From NCBI GenBank assembly GCA_030390025.1, contig CM059431.1:120344001-120408000 (forward strand): DNA of 64,000 bases. The letters run 5' to 3'. The number at the start of each line of letters is the position of its first letter. Positions within the stretch are counted from its first letter, which is position 1. Of the stretch, positions 2,450-51,119 are shown one piece after another. This DNA comes from Squalus acanthias. Lineage: Eukaryota. The position numbers and the translations under genes are program-made. The notes below the pieces were generated by a model. It was not told the DNA's origin and ran no database searches. It saw only the letters and a list, made by a program, of their open reading frames with translations.

Positions 2450-3744
2450 TTTCAAATAAAGCTGTTGGACTATAACCTGGTGTTGTGCGACTCCTTACAT
2501 TTTAGACATGGGGTTTTTTAGCTTAGGACCTGATAAAATGATATGCAAAGTTTGGAAGTCTGCTTTTAAAACTTGACAGCATATTCTCACCAAGAGTTCT
2601 TCAAAAGTCTGCTGCTGTTAAAAATTTAATTGAACTCTCTTCTACACCAGTTACACCAAGAGTTCATATTCCCCTTTTTAAAAATTTATTTTCATTGATG
2701 TCTTATAGAACAGTTTAAGGATATCTGTGCCACAGTCTTTATGTGAAGTTTCCAGTGACAGTCCCTCCAGATCTGAGCCTGTGCTTTAAGAGCCACTCAC
2801 CGGGGAGTGAATCTCCAATGCGATACGCAGGCTAGCACACTGTCACTGCTAGCTGCAAGACGGTGCATCCCCAACCCCTCCACAACAAACCTCCAGACAG
2901 CAACCATCTGGGCGAAAGATCTGCGGAGCTATGGGAGCCAGCGAAGGTGGGAGTACCAGGCAGTCTGGAACCCATTTGTGGACCCCACACAAGACCCAGA
3001 CAAATGTCCGCAAATGTAAGAGGGGAGCCGTGGACAAACAAATGCCTCGTGATGTGCCACAATGCAGAATGCTCCAACCTACAAGGACCATCAGCAGACT
3101 CGCTAACAAAACCCAGGAGCCGTCACCAAATGATCAGACACAGCACATTGTCTGAGAACGCCGCCCAATCCTTCAGACGCGACCTTCGGCCTCCTGCTCA
3201 GGTTAGCGCTGGAAAGAGCCCATTGCACAACAGATTCTCCACTCCGCTCATGTAAATTAGCAGGAAACACCAAAATAATGGTGCAACCTGCGCTTTGTTT
3301 GTAGGCGGCCGCTAACCCTGACCTGCACTGTTACCGGCAGGCTTGCGGCCTACTCAAATTTCTAGGCTTTGATCACTTACTACCTTTAAAAGAGCTTATT
3401 CTAGATGAACTTGTAGCCAAGCAATAAGTGTGTCAGCTTCACAATCTATGTGAAATGTCACACATTTAAATCAATGGCAGAGGAGGTCTAGTACAGTTCA
3501 GGGGTATCAAATTGGTTAAGGATAAGGCTTTTTCTTTTCATTTTCATTTTTAACCCTTAGTACTGTTCTGTTTAGTGTAAAGTGAATAGTCAAACCTTCT
3601 CCTTGTAACCATATTTGGAAGGAGTGCTGGACACAGTTGATAGGACAAAACCATTTATTAAGACCCAGAGCAGCAGGTTAAAAACAAAACAACAGCTGAA
3701 TTAGCCGAGCAATGTTTAATTCAATTAAAATAACTGGACACAAA

Positions 3745-4950
3745 GGGCTGAATTTTAATGGGAAGGCGGGTTGGGGGTGAGGGGGCAAGGGGGCTCCGAG
3801 ACGGTCGGGAAACCTGGGAGAACGGGTTTCCCGCAGGCCCTGCCAACTTTAACGGCAGGGCCTGATTTGCAAGGAAAGCCTCTGTTTCCCACTCGCAGTC
3901 AGCCAGATTGAGAGGCTGACTGGCTCCGGGTGGGTATGCCTGCGGCACTAGGCCGCACAGAGGAGGGAGGGATCACGTGGGGGCCGGGGCCAGCTGGAGG
4001 AGAATGGTGGGGGAGCGGTGGGGAGAGATTGGAGTGGGGCTGGAGGATCGGGAGGAAGGGAGAGAAGACTGAAGCACAAATACTCCCACAACTAGTGCGA
4101 TATCTGTAGCCCACAGGGTTTGATCGGAGTGTTGTATAAATGCTCTCTCTAGATGTAACCCAAATCGGCAGTTCCATGCTGACGTCCATCCCATCCAGAA
4201 GCTGCAGTCTGCAGGTCAGAACCGACTTACTGTTGCCTGCCATGGGGATGTGCACCATGGTCCCGGGGGCCGGAGGGTCGGGGGGTGGGAGAGATAGTTG
4301 GGGCCGGGGGATCAGGGAGGAGGAAGAGAAGTTCGGGGCTGGAGGATTGGGATGTGGTTAGGGAGGGAAGCATTGGGGCCGAAGGATCTGGGGTTGGGAG
4401 ACAAGCATCGGGGCCGGAGGATCAGGGTGGTGGGGAGTGAGGGAGGGAAGCATCTTAGCCGGAGGATCATGGGGGAGTGGTAGGAGGAAGCATTGGGGCC
4501 GGTCTGAGTATCATCGGTGGTGGGGGGAGAGGGGGCTTCCGGGAAGGCGATCAGAGGCCTCATGAGGAGGTCTCCGATCGCAGGGGGTAGGTTAGATAGG
4601 GATCCTGGATTCAGGAGGGAGGAGTAAAGGCACTTACCTCCTGGATGCAGCAGCCCTTGCCTTACTGTAGCTGCTGGGTTTAACAAGGTGTGTAAAACCC
4701 TACCAGCTACAGTTAAACACAAAATGGAGGTTAAAGACGAGGCTTCCATCCTCATTATAATATTTAAATAGCCCGCCCGCCTCCTGGCAGCGGGTTGACT
4801 GCCTGCCCCCGTTCCGGCTTCCATTCTGCCTCCATTAAAACTGGAAGTGGGCGGGTTGGAGGCGGGTTCAGGCTAGGATTCATATTTCTAGCACTTCAAT
4901 TACCCCCACGCTCCTAACCCACCCTTTTTTTCAAGGTTGAACTTCCCTCC
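3745..4950. mobile_element. Non-autonomous Harbinger-type TIR element with G-rich minisatellite core and a captured foreign segment
   Basis: Starts GGGCTGAATTTTAA, ends TTGAACTTCCCTCC (imperfect TIR); AAA duplicated at 3742-3744 and 4951-4953; left part homologous to 44004-44663. Confidence 0.65.
4166..4258 (-). pseudogene. Captured fragment of an EPB41L4B/EPB41L5-like gene (start of FERM domain)
   Basis: Translates MVHIPMAGNSKSVLTCRLQLLDGMDVSMELP versus recalled EPB41L5 [29 protein letters not shown]; no flanking splice sites; paralog not resolvable. Confidence 0.8.
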
Positions 4951-5387
4951 AAATACACAGTTTCACATACAATAATTGTATTGTTATCTTGAGCTCCATT
5001 TGCTGTTGTAGGTACGCTTTTACTACCTACACTTAGATTGGGAATGGGAGAGAGAGAACGAGAGACTAAGCCTAGTGAAGATAAAAGAAAAGAAGATGGA
5101 GAGCAGTCTGGTTGCACCTGCAGTTATACTTAAATGCGCTTGGGGTTATCAATAAAAAATTAGCAGGGCTATGCGTTAAATGCCATCTTTGCCTCGCCCT
5201 TTCCATCTAGGATGATTGGTTCAGATTTATGAGTCCTTAGTTCACGGCTTTGGAAAATGCAGAAGTCGAGCTGCTGACTTCCGAAACTAGTTCATTAACA
5301 TTTATGTACTCCTCTTTCTGAAGGCTGGTCAAGACATATTTTACCAGGTTAGATTTCAAATACCTCTTCACCATTTCAAAAGTCATT

Positions 5388-5560
5388 GGGATACATCTTG
5401 ACTTTGTGCCATGGTGTAAAGTAGGTGATAGCGAGTCGGCAAACCGTTTTATATCTCTCCCATTGAAATCAATGGAAATGAAAATTGGGAGCGATGTAGA
5501 ATGGGCTGCTGACTCACTATCACCCATTTTACACGATCGCACAAAGTCAAGATCTACCCC
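5388..5560. mobile_element. 173-bp palindromic MITE
   Basis: GGGATACATCTTGACTTTGTGC ... GCACAAAGTCAAGATCTACCCC; ATT TSD (5385-5387, 5561-5563). Confidence 0.85.
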
Positions 5561-5563
5561 ATT

Positions 5564-7785
5564 GTCAGCTGTGGTTCAGTGGGTAGCATTCTTGCCTCTG
5601 CGTCAGAAGGTTGTGGGTTCAAGTCCCACTCCAGAGACTTGGGCTGCGATTTCGCCTACTGAGGTGGGTCCGGGGCGGCCGGGGTCGATGGCGGGGTGCG
5701 ACCCGGCTGCTAGCTCCATCCCGCTCTGTGAAAGGAATTTACATAGATTGGGCTTGTTAAGCCCGCCCAACGCGTTTCCCAGCCAATTGAAGGAAGCGGG
5801 TCTGATGACATCATTTGATGACGCATCATCAGCCGGTTTCCATTCAGGGGCCATGTCCAAATTGATTTTGACAGTTCTGCTGTCAGTGTTCTACAGTATT
5901 GAGGTGCTGCAAACACTGACAATCACTGCACAGAGGAGCAGGACTTTACCCAGGCTCTCCCATGACTCCCTCCATATGTTTATGCTTATGGAGGGAGTCA
6001 CAGCACGCAGGGAGGCCCTCTTTGCTTCCCATGGGTGGAGAAGACCTCCCCAGGAGATCTACACAGCCTGGTTACACATTGCACAGGAGGACACAAGGAG
6101 GGATGTCGTTAGGAGGACCTGGCGGTAGTGGCGCAAACCTTTCAATGATCTCAGTAGAACACGAAACACTCAACCTCATCCTGCTGTGCCACTCATCACA
6201 TCGCCATCACTCTGCCTTCCCTACCCTACTCCTGCACATCCTTACTCACACCAACTTACCTTGCACCTCCACCCCACCCATCCCCCTCTATCTACATTAT
6301 CACTTCCCCATCTCACTAGCCACCCCTCACACTCACCCTCATCCTTGTCCAATCATACCAACTAACAACACACAAGGGTCGGCACTTATGTGTTTTAGCC
6401 AATGTTCATGTGAAGTTTCTGTTAATGTGGTGTCAAACATTGAAATCTTTATTTTCAACACTTTGCATTCTGTGACAGATTTGTGTGCACCTTTGGAAGT
6501 GGCTTAGTGAGTTGCAGTGAATGGTGAGACATAACGGCACCCCCTGCAATGCTGATGAGTGTAAAAGGAATGTCTTGGGCATTGTAGGGATGCTTTATGG
6601 TGTTGCTCTGGGGTGGTGCCAACCTGGCGCATCATGTGGCAGCCAGGGTGTGCAGTGTCAAGTGAAGTAAATCTGGCCATGGTGAGGCCATCCCTGGCCT
6701 CCCGGGCAGCAATGTGGTCGGGTACTGATGTCCTGTGTCCTGTGCAGCATCAGTTGATTGCGGAGAAGGTTGGTATTTTTGTTGGTGCTGCTGGTGTTGG
6801 GGCTGATCGTGGTGTGATTCTGAGGACCAAGGTGAGAGAGTGCAAACCGTACCCATTCTGATGTAATGGATGGAAGATGAGGGTGAGATGACAGACGCCA
6901 ATCTGTCAATGCTGAGAGAGGTTGTTTCAATGAGGTGGCACTGGATAGAGAGTTTGCTCCAAAAACTTGCAAGCTGCATAAAGCTCAATCTGTCTTCCAA
7001 ATGCAGTAACCAACAGTTTCTGAGCTTGGAAAGTGAACAGCTGTGTGATGGGAGCTTTTATACAAATTTTGCAGCCGTCAGGTAATAAGATAATTCAATG
7101 CTGAATCCACTCATGACATGCTGAGCTTACATGATCCCCGAGCAGCATGTAACCCGTTGGGTAACATGTAAAATTGAAAGGTAAGTATAAAATAATAATT
7201 AATTGCCTCTTAGCAATCTCTCTAATGATCTAAATTGCCACCCCCGCCACTTGGTGTCGGGTCTGTTCAACGATGACAGACCCGACACCTGGGAGACTAG
7301 CATGGAGGCGATTTGACAGTGGGTTCCCGACCCGCTGTCAAAACATTTCTTTCCCACCGTACCTCCCACCAAACGCTCCCAATGACACCCTGAAAAGCTC
7401 CCCCCTTGAGCACACAAATCTAGGCTGACAATCCAGTGCAGGGTTGAGGGAGTGCTGCAGTGTCGGAGGTGCCATCTTTCAGATGAGATGTTAAACGGAG
7501 GCCCCTTCTGCTCTCTCAGGTAGACATAAAAGATCCCATGGCAATATTTCGAAGAAGAGCAGGTGAGTTATCCCCGGTGTCCTGCCCAATATTTATTCCT
7601 CAATCAACGTAACAAAAACATTATCTAGTCTTTATCACACTGCTGTTTGTGGGAGCTTGCTGTGCGCAAATTGGCAGCTGCATTTCGTACATTACAACAG
7701 TGACTACACTTCAAAAGTACTTCATTGGCTGTAAAGCCCTTTGGGCGTGAAAGGCTCTATATAAAAGCAAGTCTTTCTTTTTTCT
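5564..7785 (+). mobile_element. tRNA-derived Deu-domain SINE, split by insertion 5641-7404
   Basis: A/B-box head 5564-5640; resumes at 7405 with Deu core GGAGGTGCCATCTTTCAGATGAGATGTTAAAC; collinear with intact copy 36397-36839. Confidence 0.85.
5641..7404 (+). mobile_element. ~1.76-kb non-autonomous Harbinger derivative, copy 1
   Basis: CTT TSD (5638-5640, 7405-7407); decayed Myb/SANT exon ~5920-6160; homologous to 9614-12103 and 39685-41440. Confidence 0.85.
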
Positions 7786-8306
7786 TATTGTCACTTGCAA
7801 ACTTAACATTCACTGCACATAGAATTGTGCAGTCTTAAAATTCTTACAGCTTTAACTTTCCTAAACAATCTGATCTGTTACATTAGAAACATCAACTGAC
7901 TTCAAGCAATCTTATATTGATGATTCACTGGACAGGCCTACAGAATGTGAAACCAGAGAGGTTTTAAGATTTGAATCAGAAAGGACAGCAACAATCTGAT
8001 TTTAATGATATCAGTCTGGGGTCTGCCTCGGTACACCACGATTGTTGCTGTGTGATTGATTGAAGTTGTCCTTCTGCAGATATGATACACTGCCATTTTT
8101 TCCTCTATCGTCCATCTTCTAACATGTACAGAGCCTCCGGGCAGTCAAGGTGCAAATTTGAACTTTCTGCCATTCAGTTGTGAGTTAAGTGTTCGACAGT
8201 TATGACTTCCAGCTCCACTCCTGCATGAAATTTAAATATGAGCTGGGCTCATAGATCACATAATTAAACATTGAAATGAAAATTGCTCATGTTTCTTTGT
8301 ACTTAC

Positions 8307-8336
8307 CAGAATAGGTTTCCCAGAATCCAAGTGTGA
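8307..8336 (-). other. Candidate 30-nt host micro-exon (alternative acceptor gives 54 nt, 8307-8360)
   Basis: ctcttctcAG|TCACAC...ATTCTG|GTAAGT in repeat-poor DNA; TGCATG and a (TG)n tract upstream; no homology recognised. Confidence 0.3.
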
Positions 8337-9613
8337 CTGAGAAGAGGATTGTGGATATTACTTAGATACATACAAACACACATGCACGCACACACACACA
8401 AAATAAATATGTGTTTAAATGCAGTGAACTGCAATGTTGCATATAATCAATTTCCAATCAAATGCAAATAATAGTGGCAGATCTAGCCTTCTTACAAAGA
8501 ACAAAACTAAAAGAAAAAGCAAATTGACTGTGAAGTTGCACTGTGAAGGTTACCTAACCTGAATTACCAGACATTCCTACATGATTCACATCCGCCTCTG
8601 CAGATTGTTTTTCTATTGCAATTGTGGTTACTGATGTACATGCTGAGTGGGTGTCTGTGCTGACATTAAGTGTTACTATTTTTTAATTATAGGCAATTAA
8701 GTATCCTAAACAAGTCAAATGACACGTATCAGTTTTTGATCTGCATGTACTTTAACCTCAAAACATCGAGAAATTTCCTGAAAAATTAAATGCTTTAAAT
8801 TATGTAGTGAAACCTCATATTAGTGATTTTTTTCTCCAAGATGCCAATTAAAGCACATTTAAAAACAATGTTTTCGCTCACTAAATTGAGCTTTGACTCA
8901 AAATTGAGGAAATTTAATATTAGGAACTAACAGCCCACCTGAGATGGTTGAATGCAGCTGTGCTAAAGTGTGTACAACTAAATGTGGCCACTTTTCAAAC
9001 TAAAAAAGTAATAGGTCATGAGACTGATGAAGAACATGAATATGTATTCAACATGCATCCCCAAAGAATACAGTAACATTTCCTACTTGGCAGCCAACAA
9101 TCCTATTCTTTTGAGAAATAGGAGAAATGTGCTTTTTCATAATAACTAACAAATCAAGATTATCAATGAAGAACCTGTGCAGCATACCACAGCTGCACAG
9201 TAAAATTGAAAAGTGAAGTATTTGACTCTGGCAGCAGTAGGAACATTCATAGAGACATAGGAATAGGAGTGGGCCATTTAGCCCCTCAAGCCTGTTCCAA
9301 CATTCAGTTAGATCATGGCTGATATGTATCTCAACTCCATTTATCGATCTTTGCTCCACATCAATTGATATGCTTTCCTCACAAAAATCGAAATATCTCA
9401 GTCTTGAAAATTTCAGTTGACTTGGTATCCACAGCCTTTTAGGGGAGCGAGTTCCAGATTTCCACTATCCTTTGTGTGAAAATTGCTTCCTGATTTCACT
9501 CCTAAATGGCTGTACTTTCAGGACTATGTCCCCCTTATTCTTGATTCCCCCATCGGAGAAAATAGTTTCTCTGTATCTACTCTATCAAATCCTTTTAACA
9601 TTTTAAACACCTT

Positions 9614-12103
9614 GGCCACGATTTTGCTGATCTCGGCGGGTCCGGGGCGGGTGACGTTGGTGACGGGTCGCGACCCCGCTGCCGGCTCCACCCCGCTCTG
9701 AAATGAATTTCCCTTGATGGGACCTGTTAAGCCCGCCCAGCACGTTTCTCGGCCAATTAGAGGAAGCGGGTCTGGTGACGTCATTTGATGACGCGTCATC
9801 AGCCAGTTTCCTGAAAGGGACCACGGCCAAATTTATTTTGACATTTGTGCTGTCAGTGTTCTACAGCATTGAGGTGCTACAAACACTGACAATGACTGCA
9901 CAGAGGTGCAGGGCTGCACCCAGGTTCTCCCATGACTCCCTCCATATGCTTATGGAAGGAGTTACAGCACGCAGGGAGGTCGTCTTCCCTTCCCATGGGC
10001 GGAAGAGACCTCCCCAGGACACCAACACAGCCTGGTTGCACATTGCACAAGCAGGGATGTGGTCAGGAGGACCTGGGTACAGTGCCGCAAACGTTTCAAT
10101 GATCTCAGTAGTTCACGAAATGTTAGTACAAAGCCACACTCAACCTCATCCTGCTGTGCCTCTCCTCAAAACAACATCACTCTGCCTTCCCTACCCTACT
10201 CCTGCACATCCTTACACCAACTTACCATGCACCTCCACCCATCCTCCTCTATTCATAATGGGCCAGAAATTTGGCTATTGTCGGGTGAGTACGCGCTGTG
10301 TACTCACCCGTAAGGCCACCTGAAGTGTCGGTTTCTTGCATGCACTGCGCATGCATGGGAAACCGGAACTTCCGTTCCCCTGAAGGAAGGGGTTCAGAAG
10401 TCGAACGCGTGCACGGTAGAGGCAGCGCGCACGCAGCGAACTTTGTTTTTTTTTCCAGATTTCTCCGGGAGGGTAAGTATGGAGAAGCTGCACTTTTAAA
10501 AAGGAGGCGCAAGGCCTGTTTTTAATGAGGTAAGTGGTTAATTATTTACAATTTAAACATTTTTTCAACAGGTTTATCTTTTTTAGATACTTTAAAGAAA
10601 GGTAAGTTTATGTTTAGCACCGTTAAAAAGTATAATTAATTTTTTCAAAAATTTATTTTTTTGTTTAAAGTAGTTAATTTATGTAACTTATAGTTATTTT
10701 AAAAATGTGATGTTTTAAAAAAAAATTATTTGAAGTTTAAGTGTGGTTTTGGGGCCGATCTCTATTCATAGATTTGACAGGTCTTCCTGTCAAATCTATG
10801 AATGAAAATGCCCTCCTCTTATTGGCTCTCCATGGCCCACGTGATCCCAGGGGACGCTTCGAACTAACTGCGCCCCTGGGATACGCAAGCACTGCGCGCC
10901 AGCAGCTGCAGGAGGCCCAGGACCTGAAGTCCTCGTGGGCCCAAAGCACAACAGCAGGCGCGGTAGGTAAGTACGCGCGCGATGCTTGCACCCGCAGGAA
11001 GCCGGAGAGCCGAATTTCTGGCCCATTATCACATCCACATCTCACTAGCCACCCCTCACACTCACCTTCAGCCATACCAACTAACAACACACAAGGGTAG
11101 GCACTTGGGTCTTTTATGCAATGTTTATGTAAAGTTTCTGTTAATGTGTTGTCAAACATGTAAACCTTTATTTTCAACACTTTGTGTTCTTGGACAGATT
11201 TGTGTGCACCTTTGGAAGTGGCTTAGTGAGTTGCAGTGAATGGTTAGACATAATGGTTATGAGTGTGAAAGGAATGGCTTGGGCATTGTAGGGAAACTTT
11301 ATGGTGTTGGTGTGGGGTGTTGACAACCTGGCGCATCATGTGGCAGCAAGGGTGTAGTGTCAAGTGAAGTCAATCTGGCCATGGTGAGGCCATCCCTGGC
11401 GTCCCGGGCAGCAATGTGGTCGGGTGCTGATACCCTGAGTCCTGTGAAGCATCAGTTGATTGCAGAGCAGGTTGGTGTTGTTGGTGCTGCTAGTGTGCCT
11501 GGTGCTGCTGGTGTTGGGACTGATCGTGGTGAGATTCTGAGGACCAAGTTGAGAGAGTATAAAGGGCACCCATGCTGATGGAATAGATAGCAGAAGAAGT
11601 AGAGATGACAGAAGCGATCTGTCAATGGTGAGAGAGGTAATGAGGTCAGACTGGATGGAAACTTGTGTAAAGACTTGCAGCATGGTGAATCTGTTGTGGA
11701 AATGCAGTGAGGAAGAGCTTGTGTCTGAGGGAAGATATATCTGTCAGGTGGGAGCTTTTATTTTACATTTGAAGCTGTCAACTCATCAGCTGATTCAATG
11801 GCCACTGAACTCCCGCCTCAACTTGACAGACATGGTCCATGACCAACGTGGACCCGTGGGTGAGCTGTCAAATGCAAAAGGTAAGCTTGAAATCATTCTT
11901 AAAGGGCTCTAAACAAGCCACTAATTACCTGAATTGGGTCCCCCGCCACTGCATGTCGGGTCTGCTCAGCGCTGACAGACCCAACATCGGGAAAGGCGCG
12001 TGGCGGCGAGTTCACAGCCGGGTCCCGATCCACTGTGAAAAAAGCACTTTCCCATCCAATCTGCCACCGGTCGTGCCTGCCGACACCCCGCAAAATTCTG
12101 GCC
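9614..12103 (+). mobile_element. Non-autonomous Harbinger derivative, copy 2, with nested MITE
   Basis: TIR GGCCACGATTTT / AAAATTCTGGCC; CTT TSD (9611-9613, 12104-12106); Myb remnant RRTWVQCRKRFNDL. Confidence 0.85.
10260..11024 (+). mobile_element. ~765-bp MITE, hairpin family, copy 1
   Basis: TIR GGGCCAGAAATT / AATTTCTGGCCC; flanks AAT/ATT; collinear with 19947-20712. Confidence 0.9.
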
Positions 12104-13242
12104 CTTGATCATATCACCCATTAAATCTTCTATAAAACACGGAATACTAGCAAAGTTTATACAAACTGTCCTCATAATCCAACCCTGGTATAATTTACGT
12201 GAATTTTTGCTGCACCCCACTGCAAGACCAATATATCTTTCCCGAGGTTCGGTGCCCAAAACTGAACGCAGCACTCCAGATGGGGTCTGAACAAGACTCT
12301 GCACAACTCAAGCATCACATCCTCATTTTGTATTCAAACCCTCTTTAGAGGAAGTCCAATTTTTCATTAGCTTTCTCGATAAGTTTCTTTTTACCTGTAC
12401 ACTAGATTTTAATGATTTGTGTACATGAACACCTAAATTCTTCTGCTCATTCACAGCTTCTAGTCTCTCACCATTAAGAAAAGATTCCTATTTGTCTTTC
12501 TCAGATCCAAAGTGGATGATCTCGCACTTCCCCACATTGAAATCCATCTGTCATAGTTCTGCCCACTCACTTATTCTGTCTATATCTTTGTAACTTTCAG
12601 TTCCCATCTGCACAACTTGCTGTGCCTCGTAAATTAGTATCATTTGCAAACTTGGATATACAACTCTCTATTACTTTGTTCAAGTCATCAAAATATATGG
12701 TGAAAAGCTGAGGCCCCAGTACAGAACCCTGGGGGAAGATCACTTGTCATATCCCACCAATCAGTGAATATTCCCTTTATCCCTAATTCTGTCTCCTACC
12801 TCCCAGCCAATACTCCAACCCATATCACAAGGTTACTTCCAATACATGGCACTTTTATTTTTGCTAATAAACACTTGGGGGAAACTTATCAAACGCCTTT
12901 TGGAATTCCATATAGACAACATCCACAGACACTTCCCTGTCCACTATGCTAGTGAACTCCTCAAAACTGTCAACCAGATTAATCATAAGAGATGCTGGTC
13001 TGCTACTCCGGCCTGGAAAACTGGCATCTCCACTGGTATGGTCAAGTATGCAGTGACAGACTGCAGTGTAGACAATCATTGGCCCAACATTCAAAATATC
13101 ATGTAGATATATGACTGATATATTCACCCTGTGTTCCAATAGCCTAAATTGGAAAACAGGCCCACTAAGGTCAGTAGCCTCATAAAATGTGTGAGTGGTA
13201 CTTAGGGTGCTTCACATCTGCCTTGTTCAAGCTCATTCCTCA

Positions 13243-13556
13243 TCAACATTTATTGCCCATCCCTAGTTGTCCTGAGAAGGTGGTGATGGCTTGATACAAC
13301 TAACTAGCTTCCTAGGCCACTTCAGAGGGCAGTTAAAAGACTACCACGTTGGTGTGGGAGTGGAGTCACATATAGGTCAGACCAGGTAAGGACAACAGAT
13401 GTCCTTCCCTAAAGAGCATTAGTGAACCTGGTCACTTATACTGAAACCAGCATTTATTTCCAGATTTTTTTAATGCATTCAAATTCTCAAATTGCCATGG
13501 TGGGATTAACACACTTACCTTGGATTACTAGTACAGCAATATAACCAGTACACTAC
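13243..13556 (-). mobile_element. Second tRNA-derived SINE family (central domain MetaSINE-like, from memory)
   Basis: Core GGTTCACTAATGCTCTTTAGGGAAGG; 3' tail matches the LINE end at ~63470-63520. Confidence 0.6.
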
Positions 13557-14062
13557 AAGTAAGGAGAGTGATGGAATACTCACCACTTGCCTGGGTAAGT
13601 GCAGCTCCAACAACACTCAAGATGCTCGACACCATCCAGGACAAAGCAGCCCGCTTGATTGGCACCTCATCCACAACCTTAAACATTCACTCCCTCTACC
13701 ACTGGTGTACCCTGGCTGCAGTTCTACCATCTACAAGATGCACTGCAGCAACTCACCAAGACTTCTTCGGCAGCACCTCACAAACCCGCGACCTCTTCCA
13801 CCTAGAAGGACAAGGGCAGCAGGCGCATGGGAACACCACCACCTCCAAGTTCCCCTCCAAGTCACACACCATCCTGACATAGAAGTATATCGCCGATCCT
13901 TCATCGTCGCTGGGTCAAAATCCTGGAACTCCCTCCCTAACAGCACTGTGGAAGCACCTTCACCACACAGCTCACCATCATCTTCTCAAGGGCAATTAGA
14001 AATGAGCGATAAATGCTGGCCTTGCCAGTGACACCCACATACCGTAAAAACAAATTTTAAAA
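13557..14062 (+). mobile_element. CR1-group LINE (second family) 3' fragment
   Basis: MEYSPLAW...LDTIQDKAARLI remnant and A-rich tail; homologous to 14193-16052 and 62188-63560. Confidence 0.85.
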
Positions 14063-14192
14063 AACTACCGCAACCTAATTGTGCTCAGTGTCTCACTTTG
14101 TAATTTCTCCCATAGAGTACATTTGTGTTGATTTTTGCTTCAAGTAGGATTGTTCATTTTTGACAATTAGGTGAGTGGTCTTCTTTGAATTC

Positions 14193-16052
14193 AGGTGACA
14201 ACCTGGGGAAGCTGCAACACAGGAATACATGCATGCTAAAAAGCGGCAGCAGCATACTATAGACAGGGCTAAGCGATCCCACAATCAATGGATCAGATCA
14301 AAGCTCTGGAGTCTTGCCACATCCTGTCGTGAATGGTGGTGGACCATTCAACAATTAACAGGAGGAGGAGACTCCATGAATATCCCCATCCTCAATGATG
14401 GTGGAGCCCAGCACGTGAGTGCAAAAGACAAAGCTGAAGCGTTTGCAACCATCTTCAGCCAGAAGTGCCAAGTGGATGATCCGTATCAGCTTCCTCCTGA
14501 GGTCCCCACCACCACAGAAGCCAGTTTTCAGCCAGTTCAATTCATTCTACGTGATATCAAGAAATGGCTCAGTGCACTGGACACTGCAAAGGCTGTGGGC
14601 CCCGACAACATCCCGGCTGTCGTGCTGAAGACTTGTGCTCCAGAACTAGCCACGCCTCTAGCCAAGCTGTTCCAGTACAGATATAACACTGGCTTCTATC
14701 CGACAATGTGGAACACTGCCCAGGTATGTCCTGTCCACTAAAAGCAGGACAAATCCGGCCAATTACTGCCCCATCAGTCTACTCTCAATCATCAGCAAAG
14801 TGGTGGAAGGTGTCGTCAACAGTGCTATCAAGCAGCCCTTACTCACCAATAACCTGCTCACTGATGCCCAGTTTGAGTTCCGCCAGGACCATTCAGCTCC
14901 AGACCTCATTACAGCCTTGGTCCAAACATGGACAAAAGAGCCGAATTCCAGAGCTGAGGTGAGAGTGACTGCCCTTGACATCAAGGCAGCATTTGACCAA
15001 GTGTGGCATCAAGGAGCCCTAGTAAAACTGAAGTCAGTGGGAATCGGGGGGATAACTCTCCACTGGCTGGAGTCATACCTAGCACAAAGGAAGATGATTG
15101 TGGTGGTTGGAGGTCAATCATCACAGCCCCAGGACATTGCTGCAGGAGTTCCACAGGGCAGTGTCCTAGGCCAAACCATCTTCAGCTGCTTCATCAATGA
15201 CCTTCCCTCCATCATAAGGTCAGAAGTGGGGATGTTCGCTGATGATTGCACAGTGTTCAGTGTCATTCACAACTCCTCAGATAATGAAGCAGTCCATGCC
15301 CACATGCAGCAAGAACTGGACGACATTCAGGCTTGGGCTGATAAGTGGCAGGTAACATTCGCGCCACACAAGTGCCAGGCAATGACTATCTCCAACAAGC
15401 AAGAGTCGAACCACCACCCCATGACATTCAACGGCATTACCATCGCCGAATCTCCCACCATCAATATCCTGGGGGTTACCATTAACCAGAAACTTAACTG
15501 AACCAGCCACATAAATACTGTGGCAACGAGAGCAGGTCAGAGGCTGGGTATTCTGCGGTGAGTATCTCACCTCCTGACTCCCCAAAGCCTTTCCACCATC
15601 TACAAGACACAAGTCAGGAGTGTGATGGAATACTCTCCTCTTGACTGGATGAGTGCAGCTTCAGCAACATTCAAGAAGCTTGACACCATCCAAGACAAAG
15701 CAGCCCGCTTGATTTGCACCCCATCCACCACCTTATACATTCACTCCCTCCACCACCGGCGTACCGTGGTTGCAGTGTGTACCATCTACAAGATGCAGTG
15801 CAGCAACTCGCCAAGGCTCCTTCGGCAGCACCACCCAAACCCGCGACCTCTACCACCTAGAGAGACAAGGGCAGCAGGCGCATGGGAACACCACCACCTC
15901 TAAGTTCCCCTCCAAGTCACACACCATCCTGACTTGGAAGTATATCACCGTTCCTTCATCGTCGCTAGGCCAAAATCCTGGAACTTCCTCCCTTACCGCA
16001 CTGTGGAACTACCTTCACCACACAGACTGCAGCGGTTCAAGAAGGTGGCTCA
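14193..16052 (+). pseudogene. CR1-group LINE ORF2 reverse transcriptase, disrupted
   Basis: KAVGPDNIP, LDIKAAFDQVWH, GVPQGSVLG, FADD motifs split by stops (ORFs 14229-14741, 14800-15501, 15622-15903). Confidence 0.9.
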
Positions 16053-16169
16053 ACTTCCAGCATGCATTGGAAAATTTACCTCAGTGTGCAAATCATAGAA
16101 GACATGATTATTATACTGCATATCAATAGTTCTGAGCACTTTCCAATCTGCAGTGATCTCAATCCTGGA

Positions 16170-22296: not shown

Positions 22297-22661
22297 TCAC
22301 ATTCTGTATCGTGACATGAACCCGATATCGCGATTGAGGCCATCCTCATGAGTGCGGAACTTGGCTATCAGTTTCTGCTCTATGATTTTGCGCTGTCGTG
22401 TATCTCGAAGGCCGCCTTGGAGAACGCTTACCCGCAGATCCGAGGCTGAATGCCCCTGGCTGCTGAAGTGTTCCCCGACTGGGAGGCAACCCTCCTGCCT
22501 GGCGATTGTTGCGCGGTGTCCGTTCATACGTTGTCTCAGTGTCTGCATGGTCTCGCCGATGTACCATGCTCTGGAGCATCCTTTACTGCAACGTATCAGG
22601 TAGACAACGTTGGCCGAGTCACATGAGTATGTACCGTGTACCTGGTGGGTAGTGTCCTCAC
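22297..22661 (-). pseudogene. Penelope GIY-YIG endonuclease C-terminal fragment
   Basis: NVVYLIRC...WYIGETMQTLRQRMNGHR...PVGEHF...EQKLIAKFRTHEDGLNRD. Confidence 0.9.
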
Positions 22662-22846
22662 GTTTTTAAAAAGACTAACACAAGAACACAAATTGACAGG
22701 ATATGCAGCCAGCAGGTGGTTTGACACGTTGGACCCCCTGGGACACATCTCATTGTCTTGGCTGTGCTCTTTGTTGTAGGGAAAGATGTGAATAGATTTT
22801 GTCTGTGTTTAAATTGTGAATTCTGGGAGATTCTCTCACTGCTAAC

Positions 22847-29905: not shown

Positions 29906-30011
29906 ATAAGTATAAAAGCAAAATATTGCAGATGCTGGAAAACTAAAATAAAAACAGAAAATGCTGGAAATACTCAGCAGGTCAGGCAGCATCTGTGGGG
30001 AGACAAACAAA

Positions 30012-30831
30012 GGGCTGGATTTTGCCAAGCTTTTGGAGGCGGGACTCCCACTTGTCGGGTTTTAGTCCCGCCTCCATCGACTTCTGGCCAACCCATGCTA
30101 TTTTCCCTTGATTGACCTTGTTAAGCCTGTCTAGCGGGCTTAGCAGGCCAATTAAGGGGAAGCTGGTTATAGAGAATGTTTCTGTCAAAAATTTTTGACA
30201 GATGAATTGTCATTGTTTGACAGCTCTGTGAAGCTGTCAAGCACTGACATTCTCTGTAGTTTGATGAGTTCTTGTATTCAAGACTCATCAAACCCCTTTC
30301 TTTAGCAGAAATTAGATGGTTGTTGCATTGGAGCATGCAGCAGCCATCTGTCATCTCTGCCACAGAGATGCGAGACTCTCTGCATCTCCAACGATTGAAG
30401 CCTGCAGGAAGAAACAAAGGTAAGTAAACATTTTCTAACACTTTCCACTTACATCACATACTCACCTCTCCACACTTGCACTCATCACTTACCTTCACAG
30501 CGCACTTTTGCATCCCTCCGACCCCCGTAGACCCACTGCTCGCCTCGCTGACCCTGGCGGGATTCGCAGCCTTTGGGAAGCCCATACTTGTGTGGGTAAA
30601 ATGGGGATAATCCTCTTATCTGCCTGTTAACTACCTGGCAGGCAGTTAAGTGGCTATAATCCCCTTCCCGCCTCCAGGAGACGGGACCCGGCGTGGGTCG
30701 GCTACCCGCGTCCTGGAAAGATGGCACGGAGGCGGGTTGGGGGTGGGATGGGCACCCGCCCCCAGATTCTGCCATTTTCCCGGCAGTCCCGCCTCCAAAC
30801 CCGCCTCCCCAGGGCTGGTAAGATCACTCCC
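30012..30831. mobile_element. 820-bp Harbinger-type non-autonomous element
   Basis: Interrupts the Penelope pLTR cleanly; AAA TSD (30009-30011, 30832-30834); GGG..CCC imperfect TIR. Confidence 0.75.
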
Positions 30832-30870: not shown

Positions 30871-32178
30871 GGAAAAAGTTAGAGATGTAAGAGGTTTTAA
30901 GCAAGTCCATGGCACGGAAAGGGGGAGGGGAGGAAAGAACAAAAGGGAAGGTCTGTGATAGGGTGGAAGGCAGGAAAGAATGAATGACAAAAGGTATGAT
31001 GATGCTGCAAGGCAAAAGGAGATGGTAATGGGACAGGTAAAGAAACAAAAGATGGGTCTAGAGGAGCTGAAAATGACAAAAGAAGAATCATTACCAGCAA
31101 TTGCTGTTCGAAAAAATAGGAGCAGTGGTTATGGTCTGAAATTGTTGAACTCAATGTTGAGTCTGGAAGGCTGTAAAGTGCTTCATTGAAAGTGCCTAAT
31201 GAGGAACAGCATCGCATTTTCCAATTAGGCACTTTACAGCCTTCTAGAACACAGAGGTCTCCTGACACAGAACTCCATGGATATATTGAGGAACGAACTG
31301 CTGGCATTATATACTCTGGTGGCTGGGTATCTGTAGGTGGGTCTAGACTTCCTGCAATGCTGCCTTATGAGCCTGGCTTCCTGGGTTGCCTGATGGCCCA
31401 TCTCTTCTTCCTCCAACAAATAAATGGTTAAAGAAGGCAATCTCCATGGGGAGTAAAGACAAATTTGCAGCCTTCCCCTTCAGCTTAGAGAAACTCCCCA
31501 AACAGTCTGGAGGGAGACTTTCAAATGAAGTGAAGAGCCCCAAAATTAAATGCACAATAATTCCAAAGCCACTCCAAAATAAAGTAATAACTCTCTATAT
31601 AACACCACAATGAAACACAGCAATTCACCTTTAAGATTCCAGCAAGAGCCATTCTAATTTGTTGTTCGATGCTATCTTTGTTTTATAGGGGGAAAAATTC
31701 AATTGGTTGCGCCTCCCGTTAGCGCCTTAAGAGGGCGCTAATGGGGCGCAAAGCCGCTAGCGCCCGGGCGCAGTGATGTTTGCGCCGCTCGGGAACTTAA
31801 CTAGACATTGTGCGGCGGCGCTAAACTTTACCGCCGCGACGACCTGCGCGCGCAGATTGTGATGTCATTCCATGGTGCAACGCCCTTGTGGTGCCCCGGA
31901 GCGGAAATTGAGTGGCGCCCCCTGCCTTACCGCCTGGCGCATCCAACGACCGGAAGACTGGAACGCTATCAATCGCTGTGGGGCTGGGGGGGGCGCTATT
32001 TAAAGGGGGCCTCTTCCTGTCTTTTTCTGTGGTTGACATTTTTGCACCACTCATTCTGAGAGAGAGAGAGAGAGACTTCTGCATTGAGTCAACGCTTTGT
32101 GAGGTAGTTTTGCCTACTGATCCTAACTTCGCTGGTACTTTGGTTGCTGTCCTTCATAACTTTGCTTGCAAAGAGACT

Positions 32179-33339
32179 ATGGGGGCTGCACTGAATGGGG
32201 GCGTCGTCCTGCTCCAGCTGAATCGGAGGACACAGAGACGCAGAGAGAGAGTGGCAATGATGGCCAGACGGAGGAGGGCCAACAGGCATCTGTACAGGAG
32301 AGCTTACCCTCCCAGGGTATATCGTGAACAGCTCTCCTACATTCATATGTCTGAGGAGCTGTGTTTGCGAAGGCTGCGATTCAGCAAGGAGGTGGTCACT
32401 GAGCTCTGCCACCTGCTGCAGCCAGATCTGCAGCCTCAACTGAGGTCCAGGACGTCTCTGTCGGTGGCAGTGAAGGTCACAGTGGCTCTCAACTTCTATG
32501 CTACTGGCTCATTTCAAGCTGCTGCTGGGGACCTCGCCAATATCTCCTAGTTCGTGGTGCATTGCTGCATCCGGCAGGTCACAAATGCCCTCTTTAAAAG
32601 GAGACGAGAGTTCATCTCTTTCCCCATGACCCCAGACAAGCAGCGTGACCGCGCTCTGGGCTTTGCGAGGATAGCGGGCTTCCCCATGGTGCAGGGCGTC
32701 ATTGACTGCACGCATGTGGCTTTGCGTGCTCCACATGAGAATGCCGAGGAATTCCGGAACAGAAAGGGGTTCCATTCCTTGAATGTTCAGTTGGTCTGTG
32801 ACCACAGACAGCTGATACTCGCTGTCAATGCCCACTATCCTGGCAGCTGCCACGATGCTTTCATCCTGCGCCAGACTACTGTGGCAGAACTTTTCGAGGC
32901 ACCGCATCAGCCAGTTGGTTGGCTTCTCGGGGACAAGGGGTATCCATTGAGCACCTGGCTGATGACACCGCTCCATACGCCCAACACCCCTGCTGAGCTG
33001 CGGTACAACGAGAGCCATCAAGCTACCAGGAACATCATTGAGCGCACAATCGGCGTGCTGAAGCAACGGTTCCGCTGTCTCGACCATTCTGGAGGAGCCC
33101 TGCAGTACTCGCCTGAGCGAGTATCCAACTTCGTAGTTGTGTGCTGCATGTTGCATAACATGGCAATCGTCAGGACCCAGCCAATGCCACCAGGACTTGG
33201 AGCACCACCAGAGGAGGAGGAGGAAGAGGAGGAAGAGGACGAGGAGGATGATCATCAACAGCACCAAGGCGGGAGGGCGGCCCACAATGGTGAAACTGCA
33301 AGGGCCGTCCGTCAACGGCTGAAAGCAAGCCGCTTCTAG
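32179..33339 (+). pseudogene. Harbinger (HARBI1-like) DDE transposase, 386 codons, one in-frame TAG at 32548-32550
   Basis: IDCTH, RNRKGFHSLNVQLVCD, PGSCHDAFI, LLGDKGY, IIERTIGVLKQRFRCL, CCMLHN; the paralog at 59849-61051 has Gln at the stop position. Confidence 0.93.
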
Positions 33340-33637
33340 GGCCCCTGCTGTGGAAATGGTTTCTGCCATTGCTAACAACATCAATGAACCTAAGCCGGCC
33401 AAGGCACCAATGATTCCAAACACCAAACATGTATATTTTGAATACAAAAACTTATTTATTTTACAAACTCTGTGTGTGTCATTTCCTCATGACAAACTCA
33501 TAGAAATAAACACAACAAAACAATCATTAACATAACTGGTTCTCACAACCTGGAGATAATGTCCAAAACACTAGACAAAAGTTGGACCACGAACCTCAGC
33601 CTTTAATAAAAAAATGACCAGCATTTTGTCACACCTC

Positions 33638-35403
33638 CTACTTTTTGCCCTTCGAGGGTGATCTCCTTCCCTTGCGCACTTCCCCCCTTCTAACCCTACT
33701 GCTCCTCCGTAATGGGACCTCAGTGGCTGCAGCAAGGCTGGTGGAAGGCTGCTGATTGTCAGACCCTGACACTGCAGATGCCCCTGAAGGACGGCCTCGA
33801 CCAGTTCTGGGCCTGGAGGGCCCGGCTGCAGACTGCACCAACTCTGCATGGGCGGCAGCAGTCTGTCCTACAGGCGGTGGCAAGTGCAGTGGAGAAGTGA
33901 CAGTGTTGGCAGCAGGAATGCTGTCATCGTGAGCGAGGACAGCAACTCCCTGCTCGACCGACACACTGGCACTCCCACGGGGCAGCACTTCAGCATCCGG
34001 AGCAATCTGCTGGAGCACAAATTGCTGGCCTGCTGCGGCGCGGTGAGAGCCCCGGGGACATGTGAATGAACCATCGAGGTTGGCAGCAGTCAGTGCTCGC
34101 GTGGCCTCAATCTGAGTCTGCAGGAGAGCAGTCAGAGATGGGATCACGGCAGTCAGTGACTGAATTGCAGCACTAAGCATTAGTGTGGCATCCGCCTGTG
34201 CTACAGCGAAGTGCTCCACACTCCTTGCCAGTGACTCAATGCATTCGGGCAATCTTCCCACTGCACCCATGAGCTCAGTGTGCATGCCCACCGCCTGGGT
34301 GTTCATTTCTGCGATCAGCCGCTCCTCTTCTGCGTCCATTGCAGTAGGAGTCGCTGGCATACTCTCCCTCTGGGGAGAAGGCCCCCGTTCTTCCCTACCC
34401 CCATGGCGTTGCTGCAGCCCGCTGGGTCCTGGAGCTTCACCCTCATCAGACCCTTCCCCCCTGCTCCCCTCCAGGGAAGGCGTGTTCCCAGTGTGGGCAT
34501 GGGCTTCCTCAGGAGAGGGTGGCACTGATGCTCCGGCTTCCTCTTCCTCCTCGGCTGCAGCTTCACTCCCACTGGCAGCTTCAGGGCCCGTCTCCTCAGC
34601 TGGTGAATCACCATCTGAAAGCAGGGAGGTACAAGAGTGGCTTTAGCGTGAGGACAGGGTGGCAGTAAGGGAGGAATAAGTGCAGCGCGTTAGCAAGTTG
34701 GATTGAAAGTGTCAAAGGCTGGTGTTGTGAGGGACAAGTGGAAGGACAGAGGACAAAAAGGTGATGACCTTACCATTGCTGTCCAGAACGGGGTCGGTGT
34801 CTCCAGTGGCGACGGGACCGATCACCCGGCTTGCCACAATCCTGTGGACGCGCTCCTCAAGATCGCTGAGGGGTTGCAGCTGAGGCCGCCCTCCACCTGT
34901 CCATTGCTGCTGTCTCCTATTATGCGCCAGCTTGGCCTGCAAGAAAAAGGACAGCATCTGAGTAAATATACAGCCATGGTCTTGCCTGATGTGCCTCCCA
35001 TAGGTGAATAGCCCTTACTGTATGCAAAGTGTGGAATGTGTGTGTGTGTTTCATGAAATGGCCATAGGTGTTGGATGAGTGTTGTGCATTGGGGTTTTAA
35101 GACCCTCTGGCCATAGAGTGAGGTTGAGATGGAGGGATGGAGAGGTATTGAGAAAAAGCCACTCACCCTGACGACCCGAGTGAGGTCGTTGAACTTTTTG
35201 CGGCATTGAACATGGGTCCTGGGCACCATGCTCCTGGAGGAGACGCTGTGAGCCACCTCCCTCCTCACTCTTCTGTATTCGCGTGGCAAAGGCCTCCTGC
35301 CACTCTCAGGGAAGAGTATACATCTTCTGCGCTCCACCGCGCCAACCAGAGCATCCAAGGCCCGCTCGGTGAAGCGCTGAGCTCGTTCTCTCACCCTCTC
35401 CAT
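33638..35403 (-). CDS. Harbinger Myb/SANT-like DNA-binding protein, 3 exons (35403-35167, 34936-34774, 34614-33638), 458 aa
   Basis: MERVRERAQRFTE...QCRKKFNDLTRVVR|gtgagt; ttgcag|AKLAHN...|gtaagg; tttcag|...KGKK*; exons of 237+163+977 nt join into one open frame; basic C-terminal NLS-like tail. Confidence 0.85.
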
Positions 35404-36396
35404 CCTTGGCAGCAAAATGGATTCGCAGGTCTCTCCAGGCCGAGATTCAAGGCTGCAATGAGCAGGGTGTGGCTGGGGAGCAAGATGCCCCCCCCCCCCC
35501 CCCTTTAAGAACTGGCTGGCGCCAGTGTGTCTGTGTTCCCTCGCTAACTGGCAGCACCTGCGCTGCGCTCGCGCGCTGAGTTAGCGCCTCACTGCTCGGC
35601 CTTTGCGCCTTAAGACAGGTGTGCAGCGCCTGATTTAGCGCTCCACTCACCTCCCGGGGTGGTAAAAGTGAAGTTTCCAGTCAGTGGCGATAATTAGCGC
35701 CAGGCGCTAATTTTTGCGTCCAGACGATATTTGCGCCCCAAACGGGGCGCGACCTAATTTTTCCCCATAGTACCATATCTTAGATTGACAGATCTAAGGG
35801 CAGAATAATGGAATTTAGGATGGATGATATCATCCTGATTAATCCCATCGACAGCATAAAACTATTGGGGCCTGACTTTAAATCAGCCCGCTTAAAGAAA
35901 TCGGGATAGTAGTGGCCCGAAAATGGTATCAGATTACTTACCGTCCCCTTTACGCTGGCACTTGGTCACTTCCATCTTGGAATGTCTTTCAATGGGCGAC
36001 CAGAGCATCCACTTGTTTGTAGTGGCTATGCAATTTTGATATGGAAATCAGGGACCTAAGATATACATAGGATACACAATTGCAACTTTGAGGGACAAAT
36101 GGACACAGTGAGCGCCCCTTTGGTCCAGGCTGCAATTTGAAAAAATCATGAATCATAGAATGGTTACAGCACAGAAGGAGGCCATTTGGCCGGTCGAGCC
36201 CGTGCCGGCTCTCTGCAAGATGGCCCCAAATCTTTTTTGATTTCAGTTTTGTGGGGTCAGGAGGAGCAGGACTGCTCACTTCTCTCTACGATTGGTTCCC
36301 CCAGACCTACCTGCCTGCAAGCCAGCTCGGCATCCAAACCAATCAAAATGTATCCACTGTCCAACTGGCAAGCTGCAGTGGCATGCAGCTCACTTG

Positions 36397-39684: not shown

Positions 39685-41440
39685 GGGGCTGAATTTTGAC
39701 AGCACTCAGAGGACGGGTTCGGAGGCAGGTCCGCTGTCAAAATAGAAAAGATTGACAGCAGGTAGGAAACCCGCTGTCAACCTGCCTCCACGCGAGTCTC
39801 CCACGTGTCGGGTCTGTCAGCGCTGAGCAGACCTGACACCAAGCATCAGGGAAGGCAACTGACACCATTAAATGGATTGTTTACATCCAATTAACTGTTA
39901 TTTTAAGCCTACATTTCAATTTTACGTGCTTTCCCATGGGATACCCACTGCTCGGGGAACACGTCAGCTCAGCATATCCTGAGTGGATTCAGCATTGAAT
40001 TATCTCATGACCTGACAGCTGCCAAAATGTATAAAAAATCCCATGTTACAGCTGTTCACTTTCAAAGCTCAGAAACTGTTGGTTACTGCATTTGGAAGAC
40101 AGATTGAGCTTTCTGCAGCTTGCAACTTTTTGGAGCAAACTCTCTATCCAGTGCCACCTCATTGGAACAACCTCTCTCACCATTGACAGGTCGCTTCTGT
40201 CATCTCAACCTCACCTGCCATCTATTCCATCAGCATCATTGCCCTTGAAAATATCTCACCTTGGTCCTCAGAATCCCACCAAGATCAACCCCAACACCAG
40301 CAACGCCAGGCACACCAGCAGCACCAACAACAACACCAACCTTCTCCACAATCAACTGCAGCTGTACAGGACACAAGACATCAGCACCCAACCACATTGC
40401 TGCCCGGAACGCCAGGGATGGCCTCACCATGGCCAGATTTACTTCACTTGACACAGTACACCCTGGATGTCACATGATGCTCCAGGTTGGCACCACCCCA
40501 CACCAACACCATAAAGCATCCCTACAATGCCCAAGCTATTTCTTTCACACTCATCACCATTGCGGGGGGTACCGTTATGTCTCACCATTCACTTCAACTC
40601 ACTAAGCCACTTCCAAAGGTGAACGCAAATCTGTCCAAGTACGCAAAGTGCTGAAAATAAAGGTTTCAATGTTTGACAGCACATTAGCAGAAACTTCACA
40701 TGATCATTGACTAAAACACACAAGTGCCTACCCTTGTGTGTTGTTAATTGGTATGATTGGACTAGGATGAGGGTGAGTGTGAGGGGTGGCTAGTGAAATG
40801 GGGAAGTGATAATGTAGATAGAGAGGGATGGGTGGAGGTGCAAGGTAAGTTGGTGTGAGTAAAGATGTGCAGGAGTAGGGTAGGGAAGGCAGAGTGATGT
40901 GGATGTGATGAGTGGCACAGCAGGATGAGGTTGAGTGTGGCTTGGCAGTAACGTTGCGTGAGCATTGAAAGGTTTGCGCCACTGCAGTCTGGTCCTCCTG
41001 ATGACACGCCTGCTTGTGCCCTCCTGTGCAATGTGGAATCAGGCTGTGTTGATCTCCTGGGGGGGTCTCTTCCACCCTTGGGAAGGGGAAGAGAACCTCC
41101 CTGCGTGCTGTGACTCCTTCCATAAGCATATGGAGGGAGTCATGGGAGAGCCTGGGTGCAGCCATGCACCTTTGTGCAGTGCTTGTCAGTGCTTGCAGCA
41201 CCGCAATGCTGTAGAACACTGACAGCACAACTGTCAAAATGTGGCCCCTTTAAGGAAACCGGCTGATGGCGCGTCATCAAATGACATCATCAGACCCGCT
41301 TCCTTTTAATTGGCCGAGAACCTCGCAGGGCGGGCTTAACAAGCCCTATTAATGTAAAATCACTTGGAGCGTGCAGGCTGGAGCAGGCAGCGGGCTGGGA
41401 CCGCGACACCGACCCACCTCGGTCGGCAAAATCACGGCCC
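39685..41440 (-). mobile_element. Non-autonomous Harbinger derivative, copy 3 (inverted)
   Basis: Reverse-complement collinear with 5641-7404; ends GGGGCTGAATTTTG / CAAAATCACGGCCC; imperfect TSD. Confidence 0.85.
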
Positions 41441-42419
41441 ACATTCGAGTCTCCACTCGCCAGAGCTGTCTGGAGTGGAGCTTAAACCCTTCAGCTTCTG
41501 ACTCAGAGGCATAAGTGCTACCACTAAGCCAAAGGCTCATTCCAAACATCCACAAACACAATGCAAATCCCAACTAGATACCATAGAGGGCATTTTGCAG
41601 ATGGTTATAATTGGGCAGTGTCGATGATTTCCTTCCACTTCATGCTGTGGTTCAGTTTCCACTAAAACTGTCAAATTCAGTTCTAAAGAAGATGATGAAA
41701 AGCCTCCAAATTGTCACAGACATAACTTGATGCGGTTGAATTATTCTTTTCCGCAAACCCCTGACGTTGGTGCAGATACTGATGGAAAGAGAATCATATC
41801 AATTTAACAGACTGGATTGACATTCACAAAACATTGGTTTAAGGCATGTTTGCAATGGAAATTATAAAAATACAAAATTAGATTTTTTAGGCTGTACAGA
41901 CAACAAATATTAGTAAAGTAATGCAGAACATTTTATTATTTGTTGATTACCATCAAAAGCACAAGCTGTTCTATATTTAAAGAAACAAAAAATAGCAGCA
42001 AAGCTAAAATGACATTTTAGCATACTTAAAGTGGAGAATAAGAAGGTTTCTTCATATAATGCTAATCAGAGATGGTTTGTTTTCTTTTATGGCATAACAT
42101 ACAAGTTTCTCAAGGAAAAATTGCTGTTTTTGGCAATAAAACGTGCTTCTGTCTACGTATCACAGCAGCAGATATAGGGGTGACTGAGTTGACCCAAGTT
42201 CTGGTATTCAGTTCAGCTAAGCTTCAACACCCTCGGTTTGGCCAGACTTGAACTAGGCCATCTGCTTCCCATTTTAAATCGACAGATAGATGGATCCTAT
42301 TAAAATTGCAACTAACTGGATATACATGAAACTATGCACATATGAATCTATGCTCCTGATAAAAAGAAAAAATCAGAACACTTTGTGAAACCAGGCTTGT
42401 TCAGTTTTGTTTAACTCAC

Positions 42420-50640: not shown

Positions 50641-51119
50641 CAGTAGCAAATCCCACATCAGATGTACCAGGTGTATCGCAGATTTCTCAGAATGATACCC
50701 GGGCTAAAAGGGATAAATTATGAGGACAGGTTGCATAGACTAGGCTTGTATTCTCTTGAATATAGAAGAGTAAGGGCTGATCTAATTGGGATGTTTAAGA
50801 TGATTAAAGGAGTTGATAGGCTAGATAGAGAGGAACTATTTCCTTTGGTGGGGGAGTCCAGAACAAGCAGATACATCCTTAAAATTAGAGCTAGGCCATT
50901 CAGGGATGAAGTCAGGAAGCACTTCTTTACACAAAAGGTAGTGCAAATCTGGAACTCTCTCCCTCAATAAGCTGTTGAGACGAGTTCAATTGAGAATTTC
51001 AAAACTGAGATTGATATGTTTTTGTTAGGCAGGTTATTAAGTATTATGGAACCATGACAGGTAGATTGTAGTGAGAAGTCGCACAACACCAGGTTATAGT
51101 CCAACAGTTTTATTTGAAA

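Follow-up and report, generated by a model that had tools for sequence, protein, structure and literature searches.

The element at 3745–4950 of the 64,000-nucleotide stretch of Squalus acanthias DNA analyzed here (the window) is, with good confidence, one copy of a multicopy Pack-TIR subfamily, whose filler includes the end of an exon of the host gene EPB41L4B. That confidence covers a history in which a break was filled, the product transposed and the copies decayed; the further proposal that the filler was copied from spliced RNA is weaker. Multicopy Pack-TIRs are a known but rare kind of element in animals. The features of this one, and of its relatives in the window, are collected in Table 1.

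Table 1. Coordinates of the host element, its insert and two related elements in the window
Feature	Positions	Strand	Remarks
Left 3-nt flank, AAA	3742–3744		probable target-site duplication
Host element, non-autonomous, Harbinger-type	3745–4950		1206 bp; AAA flank on both sides
Left terminal inverted repeat	3745–3756	+	GGGCTGAATTTT
Left arm of high-copy non-autonomous Harbinger-type family	3745–3975	+	homologous to left arm of 44004–44662
G-rich variable core, left part	3976–4077	+	ends with GAAGCA half of repeat unit
88-nt insert piece	4078–4165		42% GC; parent not found; common to other copies
Captured 3' end (33 codons) of first FERM-coding exon, EPB41L4B	4166–4264	-	stops exactly at splice donor
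G-rich core, right part	4266–4540	+	~35-nt units; 2 G-quadruplex motifs
Right arm of high-copy family	4541–4950	+	decayed terminal repeat 4939–4950 at its end
Right 3-nt flank, AAA	4951–4953		single-copy DNA outside
Autonomous-type Harbinger	31689–35767		DDE_Tnp_4 frame 32551–33339 (+); Myb/SANT-like frame 34822–35580 (-); TAG flanks
Distant non-autonomous relative	44004–44662	+	CAT flanks; no insert; only left arm alignable

We delimited the host element by the depth of contigs from sequencing runs, chiefly X1 and X11, in which single-copy depth is ~8.3 and ~7, respectively. At the left end, where two X11 contigs start at 3745, depth in these runs rises from 31–46 (3697–3743) to 2,500–4,600 (3744–3790), and over 3791–3978 the left arm reaches 2.5e4–7.8e4 compared with a single-copy depth of 7–9. 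Beyond the right end, the flank at 4966–5050 is single-copy (depth 9.28 in X1 and 7.2 in X11). Expressed against single-copy depth, the arms of the family stand at 3,500–15,600×, indicating thousands of copies, and the insert at only 5–20×. The terminal 12-mers match at 7/12 positions. The first-pass annotation had called the host a Harbinger-type MITE; the Harbinger-type assignment is supported, while at 1206 bp and with such imperfect terminal repeats the MITE label is a loose one. Three end positions were tried per element when flanks were compared, with a 3-nt chance match of 0.019 per end position. Among relatives in the window the flanks are CAT/CAT, TAG/TAG and TAT/TAT, with a mismatch at 10260–11024 and two elements with misplaced ends left out. 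Similar left ends occur at 3741–3756 and 30008–30023, both after CAAA, which hints at a target preference.

The core is the variable part of the family. Members part at 3972, where contigs have loose ends, and rejoin at ~4538 (joints 3972 to 4538). As family contigs connect the left arm with the right arm across the core, both flanks of the insert belong to one TIR element. The right part of the core is longer here than in sister copies, as seen in an X1 joint from 4294 to 4483 that carries 36 other letters at depth 17.4. The insert itself, 188 nt at 4078–4265, splits a single repeat unit into its GAAGCA and GGGGCC halves; no more than 2 nt are missing, and nothing is duplicated. These limits revise the earlier 4076–4262, and homology to the gene now reaches 4264, taking in the residues G-T-M.

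As an empty counterpart of this element, the first-pass annotation had proposed 44004–44663. That pairing does not hold: only its left arm aligns above shuffled sequence (score 63.5 vs. 26.9 ± 3.6, maximum 37.5), and its core and right arm fall inside the shuffled range, as expected of a distant family member. Given the difference in depth between arms and insert, the family itself is the proper insert-free control. Two further runs, X6 and X7, contain low-depth contigs that are near-identical to the locus within 4270–5050 (e.g. 4270–4433 with 2 differences and 4862–5050 with 1), which suggests either read-through transcription or DNA carry-over. That X6 and X7 are RNA is a guess; no run listed is recorded as RNA.

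The gene-derived part of the insert was recognized by a phmmer search of 1.84 billion representatives, which returned 51 proteins at E ≤ 1e-3 (best 2.6e-9, with 88% identity). Pfam FERM domains are present in 6 of the 16 matches scanned; most of the others are short exon read-throughs, and three further scanned matches are unrelated repeat proteins. The FERM-gene fragment claimed at the outset is thus supported, and the minus-strand translation then given for 4166–4261 is correct as written. The first 83 residues of the best match are 100% identical to a Scyliorhinus torazame protein named band 4.1-like protein 4B; a search with this match gave 41 matches, 38 of which carry the 4B name. Over the last 33 residues, the window is identical to the S. 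torazame ortholog at 29/33 positions, to other sharks and rays at 23–28 and to bony fish at 22–25, in a comparison of 18 proteins, 2 of which do not contain the motif. A paralog test gave 28/32 identity to EPB41L4B vs. 18–20/32 to the second paralog group, which we take to be EPB41L5. The initial label 'EPB41L4B/EPB41L5-like' can therefore be narrowed to 4B. Judged from sequence, EPB41L4B from a shark-like host was the donor, and the first Met of G-T-M at the end of the homology is the donor's own residue. Pfam and PDB searches with 32–62-residue fragments did not recognize the piece, only ~14 residues of which overlap FERM_N, and an Atlas search with it gave nothing at 0.8 or above. Word-based protein searches with 40-residue pieces of the window gave no candidate; these blanks carry no weight, because one of the searches missed relatives that phmmer and the search with its best match found.

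The homology ends where the exon ends. The motif is present in 45 of the 51 phmmer matches, and its final Pro is followed by Val in 29, by the next exon (K-x-A-K/R-G) in 10 and by something else in 6. We read the Val, from these protein sequences, as intron read-through from GT. An X6 contig of depth 3.8 agrees with the donor at 4177, 4188 and 4207; its depths per bin correspond to 2 bases of bin 4120–4166 and 4 of bin 4261–4307, so that it matches 4165–4264 only. Confined in this way, the match ends exactly at a real splice donor. Beyond the exon end, on the minus strand, the window reads AT rather than GT. The earlier observation that similarity stops at an exon boundary and continues without a GT is borne out by the Val read-throughs, the contig end and this dinucleotide. 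Base 4165 is A, as in the spliced Lys codon at the start of the next exon, where the intron would give G; agreement here has a 1-in-4 chance of being accidental. The absence of X6/X7 cover over 4073–4164 was not counted as evidence. The exon end, with this donor-like contig, gives an identifiable host parent for 100 of the 188 insert nt. The stop of the contig at 4264 and the single-copy flanks of the locus bear on whether the parent locus is itself flanked by the element, as in a segmental duplication.

The other 88 nt, present at 7–20× single-copy depth, match neither the coding part of EPB41L4B nor the catshark intron read-through. An origin further along that coding sequence was rejected, with scores of 14.4 and 16.2 vs. 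~16.4 for shuffles; the back-translated read-through scored 12.6 vs. a shuffled 12.2 ± 1.6, compared with 97.6 for the exon control, and a laxer read-through test gave no match either. The tblastn match could be extended into the core, but 10/60 and 5/60 shuffles reached as much, and this extension was likewise rejected. Rfam gave 3 chance-level matches, the metagenome and viral sets nothing, and an Atlas search with one frame no usable match. On the plus strand, 4069–4170 resembles a ZZ zinc finger: Pfam ZZ appears in 1 of 6 frames (E 0.0097, 16.1 bits vs. a cut-off of 21.4), and the PDB matches of this frame are ZZ proteins at E 0.66–1.6. Of the three stops in the frame, those at 4150 and 4156 are private to the copy at 3745–4950. 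This resemblance, a weak lead, may be accidental or may mark another captured gene, oppositely oriented. Depth in X11 is 49–76 over the 88-nt piece vs. 35.8 over the gene piece, about twofold, hinting that the 88 nt may exist elsewhere without the exon; X1 shows no such excess (70–164 vs. 92–139).

To account for this composition, we propose that one copy of a very abundant non-autonomous Harbinger-type element probably suffered a break or a stall in its G-rich repeats, and that the gap was repaired with foreign sequence. This filler consists of the last ~100 nt of the EPB41L4B exon and of 88 nt probably from elsewhere. With an RNA template, splicing would have joined the exon to a cryptic acceptor that lay in intron 1 or inside an element copy already holding the 88 nt, and the chimeric RNA would have been reverse-transcribed into the break. 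We favor a spliced-RNA template because the exon piece is joined precisely at the splice donor, for which splicing is the most likely single reason; we consider it plausible and about evenly balanced. The fuller account, in which a pyrimidine-rich minus strand or cryptic exon trapped the first coding exon of EPB41L4B and the resulting Harbinger cargo spread in sharks, falls just short of even. In SVA exon trapping, a cryptic acceptor within a mobile element captures an upstream exon by splicing, and the join lies exactly at the exon end. The prior for an RNA template is low, because most animal Pack-TIRs are DNA-level gap fills, as far as the accessible text of the survey goes (Tan et al., 2021, PMC8277862). 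In mouse zygotes, spliced mRNA at breaks accounts for 2 of 22 long insertions, a minority route according to the part of that study available (Ono et al., 2015, PMC4516963).

The best-surviving alternative keeps the whole capture at the DNA level. Two template switches, one to EPB41L4B exon DNA and one to an unrelated locus, would have made the filler, and the join at the exon end would be a coincidence aided by microhomology. Gap filling and microhomology-mediated fork switching are both documented animal routes in the accessible text (PMC8277862), the 88 nt are unlike both the remaining coding sequence and the read-through, and none of the X6/X7 contigs listed is a chimeric RNA contig in which the exon runs on into the 88 nt. 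Against this, a breakpoint is needed within ~1 nt of the splice donor, by our own estimate roughly a 1–2% event for a 100–200-nt piece, and capture from two donors is needed besides. We hold this DNA-level origin to be a serious possibility, though a tentative one.

Whatever the template, the filler is multicopy. At eight sites within the insert, summed depth is 8.5–19.7× single-copy in X1 and 5.1–10.8× in X11, and in both species the insert is multicopy while the flanks of the locus are single-copy. Depth suggests roughly 5–20 copies; only 'several' is safe, because overlapping contigs inflate summed depth, which is no copy number. Individual contigs were drawn from a listing of 32 of ~24,800 pieces, and variants from 40 of 408 rows. 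In X1, record 2 (4129–4294) diverges by 9.6%, and record 3, which represents the locus itself, by 1.1%; X11 records 12 (4059–4294) and 13 (4137–4348) are 13.6% and 7.5% divergent. Together, these three records span the middle and right insert junctions at 7.5–13.6% divergence, and 4 X11 contigs cross 4265. Bridging was scored at 31 letters on the short side. Record 13 exceeds this at the right junction (83 letters), and at the middle junction record 2 (37) and record 12 (107) do as well; the other outer-junction crossings among the listed contigs have 19–30. The same insertion is present in organism C, where record 16 (4.5% divergent) reaches across the right end into the flank. Depth arithmetic suggests that record 13 shares the change at 4177 of the copy at 3745–4950. 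The annotation took a single copy to mean a one-off repair insertion; divergent junction contigs in two species show several, and we infer that amplification started before the two species split.

These observations support a third step in which the chimera, its ends intact, would have been mobilized in trans by a Harbinger transposase to a handful of sites before the split. It is unlikely that the copies instead arose from a one-off repair insertion followed by segmental duplication or by gene conversion among element copies, without transposition. Conversion would be possible among thousands of similar elements, and no contig among those listed covers the whole of another copy, ends and target-site duplication included; the single-copy flanks around a multicopy insert in both species, and copies 8–14% apart in two species, speak against it. 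Very unlikely, and the weakest of the readings, is contiguous donor DNA, in which intron 1 would begin with the 88 nt and a founder G-to-A change would have removed its GT: AT is one transition from GT, protein similarity has to end at the exon end anyway and depth is of similar order over both parts in X1, but the catshark read-through starts with Val-Thr, misfits the window past the first two bases and scores no better than shuffles, 4165 is absent from the near-fixed differences among the 40 of 408 rows listed, and depth differs about twofold between the parts in X11.

The final step is decay, with recurrent CpG loss altering conserved residues. Other copies have the donor base at 4177 in 92% of X1 depth and at 4207 in 90%; the donor allele at 4188 has 38% of X1 depth and 90% of X11 depth, indicating that it was lost repeatedly. 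Such repeated loss fits methylated, unselected DNA. The changes at 4177 and 4188 are CpG transitions, each giving a Met codon, and that at 4207 is a transversion giving Leu. Two of the three internal Met codons that had been ascribed to CpG deamination are thereby confirmed; the third, 4241–4243, lies outside the 40 of 408 variant rows listed. A 152-codon open minus-strand frame runs over the insert (3899–4357) and continues into repeats; there is no support for its being used. The captured piece, which has neither the start codon of the gene nor 96% of its protein, is therefore most likely a passenger; there is no sign of function, and it is probably without one.

The window also contains larger elements of the same superfamily. 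The element at 31689–35767 has GG-purine-ATT termini, similar in style to those of 3745–4950, with no sequence homology past the tips. It shows that the Harbinger superfamily is present in the genome and is at most a candidate mobilizer. Harbingers have a two-gene layout, a transposase and a Myb/SANT-like protein, and the accessible part of the source reports none in elephant shark (PMC9179366), which places the window Harbingers on the elasmobranch side. The elements at 31689–35767 and 58006–61004 are two decayed autonomous-type Harbingers, ~66–73% alike and in opposite orientation, with DDE_Tnp_4 matches at 32551 and 60301, and 48997–49887 is an internally deleted derivative of the former. 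Three copies of a 1.8-kb non-autonomous element with Myb-like remnants, 76–82% alike, lie at 5569–7374, 9635–12068 and 39717–41534, the second being interrupted by a 765-bp TIR element at 10260–11024. A near-perfect (96%) palindromic element of 383 bp occupies 2120–2502, and a weaker palindrome of 181 bp 5384–5564. Retroelements are represented by GIY-YIG-bearing (Penelope-like) pieces at 51547–52709 and 22297–22665, one of them enclosed by a 99.6% inverted repeat (22018–22262/22663–22907); by LINE reverse-transcriptase remnants at 14199–16129, 47928–48761 and 62189–63543, with RVT_1 matches at 14662 and 47928; and by LTR-element gag/integrase-like frames at 46788–47620 and 50292–50723, judged by eye, the two frames scanned having no Pfam matches.

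Like other animal multicopy Pack-TIRs, the shark element consists of 100–300 bp of non-TE host sequence in a short non-autonomous TIR element, with an interior break and several copies. In the accessible part of the vertebrate survey, multicopy Pack-TIRs make up 4 cases (1.4%), with about three copies in the example; known ones include the frog Pack-hAT-N8_XT, with a piece of the CAPSL 5' UTR, and Ssk-FB4 of Drosophila (PMC8277862). What sets the shark filler apart from the Pack-TIRs of Tan et al. is its chimeric make-up, its end at a splice donor and its presence in two species. The pipeline of that survey discarded intronless captures and required one parent at ≥90% identity; in the parts available, PIF-Harbinger hosts fill at least 18 rows of its table, including frogs and alligator, elephant shark has 0 Pack-TIRs and a search of the supplements met 'shark' a single time (PMC8277862).

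In its GG...CC termini, 3-bp flanking duplication, absence of coding capacity and thousands of copies, the family resembles non-autonomous PIF/Harbinger elements. It departs from them in its terminal repeats, which are ~12–14 bp and decayed, vs. 25–50 bp in the accessible text of PMC9179366, and the copy at 3745–4950 also does so in being 1.2 kb long with a variable G-rich minisatellite core. Plant Pack-MULEs, too, hold 5' parts of genes within TIR elements; these parts are GC-rich and often derive from two or more sources. They belong to another superfamily with another duplication length, and their captures usually keep introns, pointing to DNA templates. The proposed filling recalls reverse-transcript-mediated break repair, in which pieces of spliced RNA are copied into a DNA break, as described in the part of PMC4516963 available. 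Unlike the break-repair cases that involve spliced RNA, the shark insert shows no exon–exon junction. Break-repair and SVA cases are, moreover, single insertions or retrotransposons, whereas the shark product would have been spread by a cut-and-paste DNA transposon. A literature search that covered few subscription journals and no repeat databases returned no report of the element, of an EPB41L4B capture or of shark Pack-TIRs.

Collectively, our data describe a shark capture that is old, common to two species and made from coding sequence, and the accessible part of PMC8277862 contains no shark or ray case. If its template was DNA, it would be an ordinary decaying passenger, of note chiefly because it could lead to false FERM pseudo-exons being annotated in sharks. 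If its template was spliced RNA, it would fill the class filtered out by the survey of Tan et al. and link retro-type repair with the spread of a DNA transposon. Such a relay from RNA to DNA transposon would be a route for exon shuffling, and sharks, with thousands of G-rich-core elements per genome, could hold many captures of this kind.
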